From: a virus
Lineage: Duplodnaviria; Caudoviricetes
Direction: 5' to 3' (one strand)
Length of the DNA stretch: 64,000 nucleotides
IMG/VR virus record: IMGVR_UViG_3300032233_002329
Location: 2,427 to 66,426 of that record
Shown here: piece after piece, positions 15,957-18,790 of the stretch
Numbering within the stretch: the first letter of the stretch is position 1
Layout of the letters: the number at the start of each line of letters is the position of its first letter
The notes under the pieces: model-generated
Database searches by the model: none
What the model was told of the DNA's origin: nothing
What the model saw: only the letters and a program-made list of their open reading frames with translations
Made by a program: the position numbers and the translations under genes

Positions 15957-16826
15957 ATGGCCCAATCCGAAATCAACTCCTATCTATCCGAAATCGGACG
16001 GCACCCAGTCCTAGGGCGTGAAGCGCAACTGCGGCATTGTCGCCGCATCCACGCATGGATTCACCACGAGGGCGGGAAGACCCTGGCACCCTCTCATGTC
16101 CAACGCCATGGCAAACGTTCCATGGAAGTAATGATCCGCACCAACCTGCGGCTCGTCGTCTCCATCGCCAAGCGCTATCAGAACCGTGGCCTTGACCTGG
16201 CTGACCTCATCCAAGAAGGCAACCTTGGCCTGATGCGTGGCCTAGAGCTGTATGACCCAACCCGTGGCTACGCCGTATCCACCTACGCCTACTGGTGGAT
16301 CCGTCAGGCCATCAATCGTGCCATCCACAGCTACGCACGGGCCATTCGCCTACCCATTAACACCCACGAACTGCTGTCTCGTATTGACCGTTTCACCCGT
16401 GAATACAGCCTGCTGAACGGCCACGCTCCCAGCTCAGCTCAGATTGCCGAGTACGCAGGCACCAGCCCTGAGCGCATCCATCAAGTCCTGTTGACGCACA
16501 GCTTGACCACTTGTACCTCGTTGGACGTCACGACCAAGGAAAAAGGCAGCGCGATCGTCGATTTAATTGCCAGCCCAACACGTACAGACGTATCCGATCC
16601 AGACGATGCGCTGCAGCTCGCCTCAAATCGCGAAATCATCGAAAGAGCCCTTGCCCACTTAGCCGAGAACGAAGCAAAGGTCATCCAAGGTGTCTTCTTA
16701 CACAACCAAAGCTTGAAGGATCTGGCTATCGAGCTGGGAGTCAGCCGTTCCCGTGCCAGCCAACTACAGCAAACGGGGCTACGCAAACTACGTTTGATCC
16801 TGGCGATGCAAGGCAATGCCCCTTGA
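15957..16826 (+). CDS. RpoD/group-2-like sigma-70 factor
   Basis: Region 2 NLRLVVSIAKRY...DLIQEGNLGL...STYAYWWIRQAI; region 4 HTH LKDLAIELGVSRSRASQL. Confidence 0.93.
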   Translation: MAQSEINSYLSEIGRHPVLGREAQLRHCRRIHAWIHHEGGKTLAPSHVQRHGKRSMEVMIRTNLRLVVSIAKRYQNRGLDLADLIQEGNLGLMRGLELYDPTRGYAVSTYAYWWIRQAINRAIHSYARAIRLPINTHELLSRIDRFTREYSLLNGHAPSSAQIAEYAGTSPERIHQVLLTHSLTTCTSLDVTTKEKGSAIVDLIASPTRTDVSDPDDALQLASNREIIERALAHLAENEAKVIQGVFLHNQSLKDLAIELGVSRSRASQLQQTGLRKLRLILAMQGNAP

Positions 16827-17309: not shown

Positions 17310-17702
17310 TTGGCACCAGGACGGCCCCCAAAAACCGATCTGCAGCAACTGGTTCAGCTGTGCGAAGAGTTTTACCAGCGCGACGGATTTGTCAGCTGGA
17401 GTGACGTCGCCCGTGCCTTAGGCGTTTCCAGGCAAGCAGTTCATGCCCGGCTAAAGCAAGCGGTTGAGCGAAGCGAGCTGGACACCGAAACCTTTGAGCG
17501 TTTCCGCTCCATGTCCTCGAGGCGTGCCGCATCCAGGTACAAGGAAGAAGAGCGCCGCAACGAAGCCAAGCTGACTCTCCAGGTCAGGGTGACCCCCGAG
17601 AACGGAGCCTGGCTCCGGGCCCAATGCGAACTCCGCCGACTCACAGCAGTTGACATCATCAATGGTTTGTTGACAAAAGCTCGCGAAGAAGCAAGCAAAT
17701 AA
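17310..17702 (+). CDS. HTH DNA-binding protein
   Basis: WSDVARALGVSRQAVHARLK; the C-terminal LQVRVTPENGAWL...AVDIINGLL segment is RHH-like. Confidence 0.7.
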   Translation: MAPGRPPKTDLQQLVQLCEEFYQRDGFVSWSDVARALGVSRQAVHARLKQAVERSELDTETFERFRSMSSRRAASRYKEEERRNEAKLTLQVRVTPENGAWLRAQCELRRLTAVDIINGLLTKAREEASK

Positions 17703-17816
17703 GCCCGGATAAACAATACATATACATTAAATTTTCTTGGGGGCATATGTGTCCTTAAGCGGGTGAACCCTGTTCCAGGGCTGGGACGCATGAGACTCAC
17801 ATCCCGGCGGGATAGG

Positions 17817-17845
17817 TTGACAGGCTCCCCCAGGTGTGCAAGACT
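17817..17845 (+). promoter_or_regulatory. early promoter P1
   Basis: TTGACA-N17-AAGACT. Confidence 0.5.
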
Positions 17846-17914
17846 GAGCTCACGCGCGCGCCCACGTGCGCGGTTCCTTCCCTCCCAGCCTCTGGACCAA
17901 TCGCGCCGGATTGC

Positions 17915-17945
17915 TTGACAGGTAGCCGGTCGTATGGTTCATAAT
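17915..17945 (+). promoter_or_regulatory. early promoter P2
   Basis: TTGACA-N19-CATAAT (long spacer). Confidence 0.4.
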
Positions 17946-18082
17946 GGGGAGACCGGAGCGCAAGCTCTGGGGAACCTAGTCAACCGATCCCCCCGCCGCG
18001 CGATCCCCCCGGGCTTGCGAGCCTTGACCCATAGGGTCAGGCTCCCCCCGGGCCGCGCGTCAACCGATCGGTCGCCTAGCAC

Positions 18083-18112
18083 TTGACAGAATCCCCGATT
18101 CTGTGCAACACT
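18083..18112 (+). promoter_or_regulatory. early promoter P3 inside an inverted repeat
   Basis: TTGACA-N18-AACACT; TTGACAGAATC-CCC-GATTCTGTGCAA. Confidence 0.45.
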
Positions 18113-18118
18113 TCATTC

Positions 18119-18613
18119 AGTTCCAAACCACTCATGGATTGACCACAAGCGCAACCAAGCAAGCGCGGCCGGACGGGCGGATCCCGTAGCTATAGCTGCA
18201 GTGTGCCCAAACTGACTGGGCGCTAGCTCCTGCACCTCACGTACGGCTTGTTCGGGTCACACCGAACACGACGAACGGACCAACATGCCCAAACGCCAGA
18301 ACACTCGGCGATAGCGGGATGCGGTCTTAGTAGCCGATAGCTGGGGGCAGGTAGGCGAACGCGGAACCTCCTGCAGGAGGGCACGCTGCAAGTGTTTTTA
18401 TCGGACCCGCTTCTGCAGGGGGTCCAACGTTCGCTCCCGACAGGGAACCGGACGGGTGCGCCAGCCCCTTAACGCCTGGCCTGCAGATACGCCCTTAGGG
18501 CAGCCCGCCGCTCCGGCTTCACTAGGACGGTTAAGCCCTGACAATCGGCTCTGTCAGGCACAAAATCTCTCCCCCAGAAGTTCCCCCTGGCGCACTGCGT
18601 CCGGGGGTCTTTT
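18119..18613 (+). ncRNA. candidate large structured non-coding RNA
   Basis: At least 10 hand-found helices including long-range ones; follows P3; ends in a GC hairpin plus TCTTTT; no convincing CDS. Confidence 0.45.
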
Positions 18614-18655
18614 GGCTGAGGGACTTTCCCTCTCCACCCTCAAGCTGTAACCAGC

Positions 18656-18790
18656 ATGGAAACCCGAGAAACGCTCCAAGAACTGATCCACGACGGCCAC
18701 GCTGAGCATTTCGCCAGCGTCCTTGTCCAGCGAATGTCCCTTGCTGACTGCGAGGAATTCCTCGACGACTTTTACGCCGAGCGCGTGTAA
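18656..18790 (+). CDS. small acidic hypothetical protein (44 aa)
   Basis: METRETLQELIHDG...EEFLDDFYAERV; first gene of the early array. Confidence 0.55.
   Translation: METRETLQELIHDGHAEHFASVLVQRMSLADCEEFLDDFYAERV

Follow-up and report, generated by a model that had tools for sequence, protein, structure and literature searches.

A large, conserved and intricately folded non-coding RNA ahead of the early genes of a virus that is most likely a siphovirus of freshwater picocyanobacteria

Immediately ahead of a run of early genes, on the plus strand of positions 18119–18655, lies a real, conserved and intricately folded non-coding RNA of ~540 bases. It was found in the window, a stretch of 64,000 nucleotides that makes up nearly the whole of an IMG/VR virus record of 66,426 bp (the ends of the record repeat), and it belongs to a family outside the Rfam catalogue. 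A first-pass annotation, made from the sequence alone, had marked 18119–18613 as a candidate large phage RNA, structured and not described before, that precedes the array of small early genes; conservation, covariation, the strand-specificity of the fold and the lack of any Rfam match all bear this out. New here are the structure of the type-A RNA, as we call the form present in this phage, the bistable 3′ module in which it ends and a mini-ORF close to its start.

A conserved RNA in a non-coding gap

Genes read in the window include a family-A DNA polymerase, a primase-helicase, a terminase and a portal, together with an SSB-like protein, an exonuclease, a dNMP kinase, a thymidylate synthase and a sigma factor. 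The portal shares 40% identity with its counterpart in Synechococcus phage S-CBS4, and the sigma factor ~36% with the sigma factors of the cyanosiphoviruses KBS-S-2A, S-CBS1 and S-CBS3; the phage is therefore most likely a siphovirus of freshwater picocyanobacteria. A cultured close relative appears not to exist: nucleotide searches with the region and 22 kb around it found no match in 50,697 GenBank phage records, and S-CBS4, the nearest cultured phage by portal, has a different layout over its first 7.4 kb, the part compared. The 19-nt core of the 3′ module (see below), searched against 185,579 prokaryote genomes, turned up only scattered matches in unrelated high-GC bacteria; these are taken as chance, and a prophage or host copy as absent.

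The RNA, present in one copy in the genome, occupies a 950-nt gap between the end of an HNH-like gene at 17702 and a run of small plus-strand ORFs that starts at the ATG at 18656. An AT-rich motif, CAATACATATACAT, stands at 17714–17727, immediately past the stop of the upstream gene. It is kept both in relative L181 and at L017, a distant locus of group B, and could mark a terminator, the end of the genome or an origin.

Homologues were collected by fetching loci around relatives of two neighbouring proteins, a set that was enlarged by pattern scans of viral and metagenome contigs. The segment 18103–18658 is 84% identical in two lineages and 72% identical in a third. Full or partial copies of the RNA (type A) occur on ~20 distinct viral or metagenome contigs, and many more phages conserve only the last ~110 nt, at 82–88%.

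As the first-pass annotation had said, the sequence holds no credible coding sequence. No credible ORF is present in the gap 17702–18656; the longest ORF with a start codon runs to 64 codons; substitutions relative to seven homologues are without codon periodicity (chi-square p 0.41–0.99) and indels are mostly of 1 nt. On the plus strand the folding energy has a z-score of −3.64 against dinucleotide shuffles, 0 of 100 of which fold as well; the minus strand reaches −1.36. A structure derived with RNAalifold from a 12-sequence alignment, curated domain by domain, comprises 114 pairs in 23 helices. Compensatory changes on both sides are seen in 45 of the 114 pairs, and 94.6% of cells pair. Column shuffles gave 20.4 ± 2.6 compensatory pairs with 86.5% of cells paired (0 of 500 reached the observed count), and slid controls 4–12 compensatory pairs with 35–44% of cells paired.

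These figures leave practically no probability for the view that the fold is a chance property of a GC-rich spacer, or the region an unrecognised coding gene. The GC content is indeed ~60%, and one frame is free of stops for 111 codons, but the compensatory changes stand far above the controls, which refutes chance folding, and the missing codon periodicity together with the 1-nt indels refutes coding. In addition, the 3′ module keeps 82–88% nucleotide identity in phages that are only 53–71% identical in their neighbouring proteins, namely a 242-residue protein and the sigma factor.

Nor does the RNA belong to a catalogued family. Neither the window nor 11 relatives matched any Rfam 15 model at the gathering score; the families thus ruled out include tRNA, tmRNA, RNase P, 6S, group I/II introns and riboswitches, and the large-RNA models GOLLD, ROOL, HEARO, OLE and raiA were part of the search. 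Extending the search of the region to E = 10 produced just two chance matches (E 1.3 and 3.3), six relatives gave nothing at E ≤ 5, and ARAGORN found no tRNA or tmRNA in the window or the relatives. The empty Rfam and ARAGORN searches agree with the first-pass annotation, which had recognised no tRNA, tmRNA, RNase P or intron; it had also called covariation essential, and this test the RNA passes.

Several pairs are G–U in 10–12 of the 12 sequences. Because many G–U pairs are conserved, the fold is strand-specific and RNA is favoured over DNA. This bears directly on an alternative in which the inverted repeats act in DNA, as part of a replication origin, a packaging site or a protein-binding array. 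The extreme conservation of the 3′ module, stems included, would suit such an element, as would a large non-coding gap with upstream repeats. We nonetheless hold it to be very improbable: the conserved G–U pairs become A–C mismatches on the opposite strand, long-range helices are nested over 200 nt, folding is asymmetric between strands, and the element stands directly past three promoters.

Promoters, mini-ORF and central fold

The features on the 5′ side of the RNA are as follows.

17817–17846, plus strand: promoter P1, TTGACA with an extended −10 (TGcAAGACT); box kept in all aligned relatives
17915–17945, plus strand: promoter P2, TTGACA with a CATAAT-like −10; TTGAC box invariant in the relatives' alignment
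17953–17970, plus strand: boxB-like hairpin CCGGAGC-GCAA-GCUCUGG, near the predicted start of the P2 transcript
17972–17983, plus strand: boxA-like motif GAACCUAGUCAA, directly after the GCAA-loop hairpin, ~20 nt from the P2 start and upstream of P3
18083–18112, plus strand: promoter P3, TTGACA, 18 nt, TGcAACACT (extended −10); predicted start ~18119
18134–18142, plus strand: mini-ORF AUG-GAU-UGA of two codons, ~15 nt past the predicted P3 start

The three promoters, arranged in tandem, are of the sigma-70 type. P3 is the sole match in the window to the promoter pattern of the family (0.03 expected) and is kept in relatives; P3 and the mini-ORF are found beyond type A, in many phages with the shared 3′ module. 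The first-pass annotation had bounded its element by a promoter and a terminator-like end. The promoter is there, as P3, and so is the hairpin with UCUUUU ending at 18613, but a simple terminator scan did not call this hairpin. The proposed extent would hold for transcripts from P3; two more promoters lie upstream, at 17817 and 17915, followed by a boxB/boxA-like element, and transcripts started at either of them would make a leader of ~0.7–0.8 kb, of which the flagged stretch is the rear part only. The phage encodes its own sigma-70-family factor at 15957–16826, just upstream of the leader, and either the host or the phage sigma factor may read P1–P3.

The mini-ORF is conserved as a layout rather than as a sequence. 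In 19 aligned sequences the ATG is invariant, the middle codon is variable and the stop is TGA, TAA or TAG; ~30 leaders contain 12 distinct versions with the layout kept, and L264 and group B read AUG-UGA. It looks like a minigene under selection. Because no Shine-Dalgarno sequence lies upstream, we go no further than to infer its translation; cyanobacteria often initiate translation without one. A two-codon minigene is familiar from lambda, where it is known as bar. Minigenes in long leaders have also been described, in the EHEC LEE1 leader (PMC3262186) and in axe-txe (PMC8708949).

Several further elements surround the promoters. The motif TGAGACTCA (as GCGACGCATGAGACTCA) has one copy here, at 17791–17799, and 2–5 copies upstream of P1 in L176, L165, L184 and L205; a factor that regulates the early promoters could use these repeats as an operator array. 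Directly past P1, within ~35 nt of the start, a conserved GC hairpin (CGCGCGC...GUGCGCG) is followed by a U-rich run (17853–17885), and this terminator-like element reads CACGCGCGCACAUCAUGCGCGUUUU in most relatives. Between P2 and P3, at 18017–18043, lies the hairpin GAGCCUUGACCC-AUA-GGGUCAGGCUC, the 5′ arm of which fits boxA at 9 of 12 positions; homologues of it (GGAGCCUAGGCC...GGUCAGCUCC) are present in nearly all relatives.

A pair of motifs follows P2. In L181 and L268 the boxB-like hairpin is preserved by compensatory changes (CCGAGGC/GCCUUGG). The boxA of the picocyanobacterial 16S–23S spacer is GAACCTTGACAA / GAACCTTGACAACTGCATAG, the reverse complement of a published primer (PMC9769826), and GAACCUAGUCAA matches it at 10 of 12 bases. 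The match rises to 11 of 12 in L181 and L268 and to 12 of 12 in L098, L096 and L183, which are more distant leaders with the same 3′ module and some of which carry it twice. Against this, the number of boxA-like sequences in the window is not above chance (10 matches, 5.5 expected), and the L176 group, the closest type-A relatives, has nothing within two mismatches of boxA. Antitermination of P1 and P2 transcripts in the style of rRNA operons is thus plausible but unproven for this phage; our literature search found no paper that describes cyanophage leaders of this kind, nor one on boxA in them.

The central fold of the type-A RNA consists of the following elements.

18149–18152/18163–18166 and 18173–18177/18183–18187, plus strand: two small 5′ hairpins; the closing pair of the second is A–U, C–G or U–A
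18195–18393, plus strand: Domain I, a ~200-nt rod closed by the long-range helix 18195–18208/18379–18393
18403–18425, plus strand: hairpin GGACCC/GGGUCC with conserved loop GCUUCUGCAG; four stem pairs covary
18428–18455, plus strand: stem around the hairpin UCCC-GACA-GGGA (helices 18 and 19); four pairs covary
18457–18485, plus strand: hairpin with the invariant 8-nt loop CCCUUAAC; supported by covariation
18491–18504, plus strand: hairpin GCCC-UUA-GGGC (helix 21); GGUGG-UUCUGAU-CCACC instead in some relatives

Domain I ends in a three-way junction that includes the hairpin 18249–18268, and 26 of its 65 pairs (helices 6–16) show compensatory changes. A likeness of the rod to 6S RNA was considered and rejected: there is no Rfam match, and the large central bubble is not seen. 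Two of the hairpins beyond the rod have invariant loops. In L184-type relatives the stem at 18403–18425 is wholly replaced (GAGCGC/GCGCUC) and the loop UUCUGCAG is kept; pair 18463/18477 is A–U in 7 sequences and G–C in 5, with zero broken, and the loop that it helps to present, CCCUUAAC, is invariant also in the L184, L185, L260, L267 and L268 types. Both invariant loops (18411–18417 and 18466–18473) have palindromic cores, CUGCAG and UUAA, which could mediate loop-loop contacts between molecules. We also tried CCCUUAAC as a boxA, and rejected it: the fit to the consensus is poor by eye and the sequence is enclosed in a hairpin loop.

About half of the helices that the first-pass annotation had drawn by hand hold, and the domain plan differs from its drawing. 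Those that hold are TGTTCGG/CCGAACA, GGACCC/GGGTCC, TCCC-GACA-GGGA, GCCC/GGGC, CTGACA/TGTCAG and the terminal hairpin. Three (ATCCCG/CGGGAT, GCGAACG/CGTTCGC and CTTAAC/GTTAAG) are unsupported, the partner strand being unconserved in relatives or a covarying alternative being available; GTGCCCA/TGGGCGC and CCTCC-TGCA-GGAGG are outcompeted by covarying long-range pairings, and GCCG/CGGC falls in a variable linker. Of the repeats it had listed, CCGGACGGG is unconserved in relatives, and three of the four copies of CTGCAG are conserved, the fourth not.

The 3′ module and exchange of the central part

The last part of the RNA (18538–18655) is near-invariant. It was recovered from 52 viral contigs, which reduce to 41 distinct sequences, and contains the following.

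18538–18557, plus strand: first module hairpin, loop (A)UCGGCUC conserved; 5 of 6 stem pairs covary across the 41 sequences
18566–18623, plus strand: long hairpin; 23 pairs, 99.6% of cells paired and 8 compensatory pairs in the 41 sequences
18566–18571/18618–18623, plus strand: outer helix of the long hairpin, UCUCUC/GAGGGA
18574–18580/18609–18615, plus strand: A-tract/U-tract pairing of the long hairpin
18583–18593/18597–18607, plus strand: terminator-like GC-rich stem CCCCCUGGCGC-ACU-GCGUCCGGGGG, then UCUUUU, the U-run ending at 18613
18618–18632, plus strand: alternative hairpin 2, GAGGGA-CUU-UCCCUC, which reuses the GAGG strand of the outer helix; covaries
18644–18658, plus strand: hairpin 3, GCUG-UAAC-CAGC, abutting the start codon (ATG 18656); covaries as GCAG/CUGC and GCUU/AAGC

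The linker GCACAAACC joins the first module hairpin to the long hairpin. Within the latter, the terminator-like stem has 10 bp and one mismatch (U18588 opposite C18602), and the U-run that follows it also pairs with the upstream A-rich strand; in the minimum-energy folds of relatives the long hairpin gains ~4 more pairs. It has the shape of an RNase III site: an irregular hairpin of at least about two helical turns, set between the leader and the first gene. We suggest that it is a terminator, a site of processing by a double-strand RNase, or both. Its stems too are near-invariant, which hints that a protein reads the sequence or that the DNA itself is under a further constraint; neither is part of the working proposed below.

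The strand GAGGUG, just past the U-run, covaries both with CAUCUC on its 5′ side and with CACCUC on its 3′ side. A base of this strand pairs with the 3′ partner as UA in 34 sequences, GC in 5 and AU in 1, and with the 5′ partner as AU in 35, CG in 5 and UA in 1. This three-way covariation defines two mutually exclusive structures. The two folds are isoenergetic (within 1.3 kcal/mol) in relatives L182, L201, L183 and L204; in this window, in the aligned register, they come to −39.3 and −35.0 kcal/mol. Because the alternative pairing involves sequence downstream of the U-run, the switch cannot decide termination; an effect on processing, on the stability of the mRNA or on translation of the first gene is more likely.

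A large, conserved and structured domain that precedes a terminator-like hairpin and a bistable element calls to mind a sensing leader of the riboswitch kind, in which the centre would bind a metabolite or factor and, by way of the alternative pairing, control either the terminator or how the first gene is translated. We think this improbable. The alternative strands come after the U-run, no riboswitch match was found in Rfam, and conservation is the reverse of what such a leader would show: the would-be platform is near-invariant and the would-be aptamer is exchanged for unrelated sequences.

Two other readings of the module were rejected. Insertions and deletions of 1, 2 and 3 nt between hairpins 2 and 3 rule out a small conserved protein across it, and the apparent stop codon is unconserved. 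A promoter-like site at 18538–18566 has a −35 box that lies inside a covarying hairpin stem and is lost in relatives. Since there is no conserved promoter between the long hairpin and the first ATG, the early genes would depend on read-through.

In phages that share the 3′ module, the upstream and central parts fall into unrelated groups, and the chimeras L207, L184, L185, L260 and L267 retain type-A sub-domains. By these comparisons the RNA is modular, with a conserved 5′ end, a swappable central part and a near-invariant 3′ module. The single non-coding RNA of the first-pass annotation is in this respect better described as a mosaic, with 5′ and 3′ ends shared with phages that have unrelated central parts. 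The central parts of the other groups have folding z-scores from −4.1 to 0, so not every one of these payloads is clearly structured. In L162 (13526–13590) and L258 (~600–665) a 64-nt insertion separates the central part from the 3′ module; it opens with a partial duplicate of the start of the module (GGGCACAAACCATCTCC...), which suggests recombination at the junction of the two.

Possible working and relation to known systems

Taken together, the position of the RNA and the elements that flank it lead us to favour, as somewhat better than an even bet, an untranslated and highly structured early leader of a picocyanobacterial siphovirus, with a terminator or processing hairpin at its end that is read through for the early genes. 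The promoters and the fold are features of the sequence and its alignment; transcript starts, termination, read-through and processing are all deduced from them. Host RNA polymerase would start at the three tandem near-consensus promoters. Transcripts from P3 would carry the mini-ORF, two small hairpins, the 200-nt rod and four more hairpins (two with invariant loops), a fold established by covariation; ribosome loading on the mini-ORF may serve as a 5′ stabiliser. All transcripts would then reach the 3′ module, where the GC-rich hairpin and UCUUUU may act as an intrinsic terminator, as a processing site, or as both; as a processing site the extended hairpin, of roughly 25–30 bp, would be cut by a double-strand RNase. 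Whether transcription ends at the long hairpin or the RNA is cut there, an abundant species of ~0.5 kb would be produced. Polymerases that read through would express the small early genes, and the boxB/boxA-like element may help those from P1 and P2 to do so, as in rRNA operons. Past read-through or cleavage, GAGGUG would swap its 5′ partner for its 3′ partner, forming a stem at the start of the mRNA.

The main rival takes the discrete RNA to be the product that matters: a mainly stand-alone, trans-acting non-coding RNA running from P3 to 18613, in which the shared ends are an expression cassette and activity resides in the swappable centre, which might serve as a decoy for a factor or defence of the host, as a protein scaffold or as a self-assembling RNA. 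Its own promoter and terminator-like end speak for this, as does the elaborate, covarying fold of its centre, whose invariant loops (CCCUUAAC, UUCUGCAG) suggest specific contacts. Phages also trade the centre but keep the ends, in the manner of accessory cargo, and the first downstream gene is not the same among phages that carry the same RNA. Against this, no partner protein or target was identified, some payloads fold no better than shuffles, and the downstream genes seem to lack a promoter of their own, in which case the same transcript must double as an mRNA leader. We consider it unlikely, at a distinctly lower level than the leader, as the whole story. A leader and a trans-acting product are nevertheless compatible, not exclusive.

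More speculative, and in our view doubtful, is an autonomous payload RNA that is issued from a conserved phage cassette as the very first product of infection and acts untranslated, alternative centres being alternative payloads. One possibility is that such RNAs assemble into dimers or larger rings through the invariant palindromic loops (CUGCAG, UUAA); another is that they serve as decoys for a host defence or a host RNA-binding factor.

New structured RNAs of at least 400 nt with many covarying helices are rare, and they have often proved to be catalytic or to form the core of a protein-RNA machine. For comparison, the candidates in a 2023 catalogue of phage RNAs are 29–151 nt long (PMC10690425). 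The RNA described here is located at the first transcript of the phage, in viruses of globally important freshwater picocyanobacteria, and its design combines a common start, an exchangeable middle and a common bistable end. It offers a test case for three questions: how a phage controls early read-through in a host thought to be without the Rho termination factor, whether phages borrow antitermination of the rRNA kind, and whether non-coding payload RNAs pass between phages like accessory genes.

In size and intricacy the RNA resembles GOLLD, ROOL, HEARO, OLE and raiA; like them it is 400–550 nt long, has many helices that covary as well as invariant loops, and occurs in a phage setting. It differs from them in that it does not match their Rfam models, is located in an mRNA leader and is a mosaic rather than one conserved fold. 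The mini-ORF, in turn, is like the two-codon minigenes of lambda bar, LEE1 and axe-txe in that a long leader conserves, at its 5′ end, an AUG followed by a single sense codon and a stop codon; unlike them it is without a Shine-Dalgarno sequence and stands only ~15 nt from the predicted 5′ end.

The overall layout recalls the lambdoid leaders (lambda pL-nutL-RNase III hairpin-N, HK022 put) and the early region of T7. In T7, promoters A1–A3 are followed by the RNase III site R0.3 ahead of gene 0.3. Here too, a structured leader that is not translated comes after strong early promoters, with a conserved hairpin just before the first early gene, and the genes would need read-through to be expressed. 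The present leader is, however, far longer and more ornate, has a swappable centre, and is without sequence or Rfam similarity to these systems; no N- or Q-like protein was identified.

The remaining comparison is with the leader and 16S–23S spacer of rRNA operons, which have tandem promoters, a boxB hairpin, a boxA (GAACCTTGA(C/A)AA in cyanobacterial rRNA operons), Nus-factor antitermination and RNase III processing stems. Unlike rRNA operons, the window has a boxA-like motif that fits boxA at only 10 of 12 positions and precedes the last promoter, and the motif is absent in the closest type-A relatives; the RNA has no similarity to rRNA, and it is protein genes that come after it. Related phage leaders, not this one, carry the exact picocyanobacterial boxA, as rRNA operons do. 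What this leader does share with them is a set of tandem strong promoters conserved in relatives and a hairpin followed by a boxA-like motif soon past a predicted start; a long folded untranslated RNA then follows, and its long irregular hairpin could be the counterpart of a processing stem.
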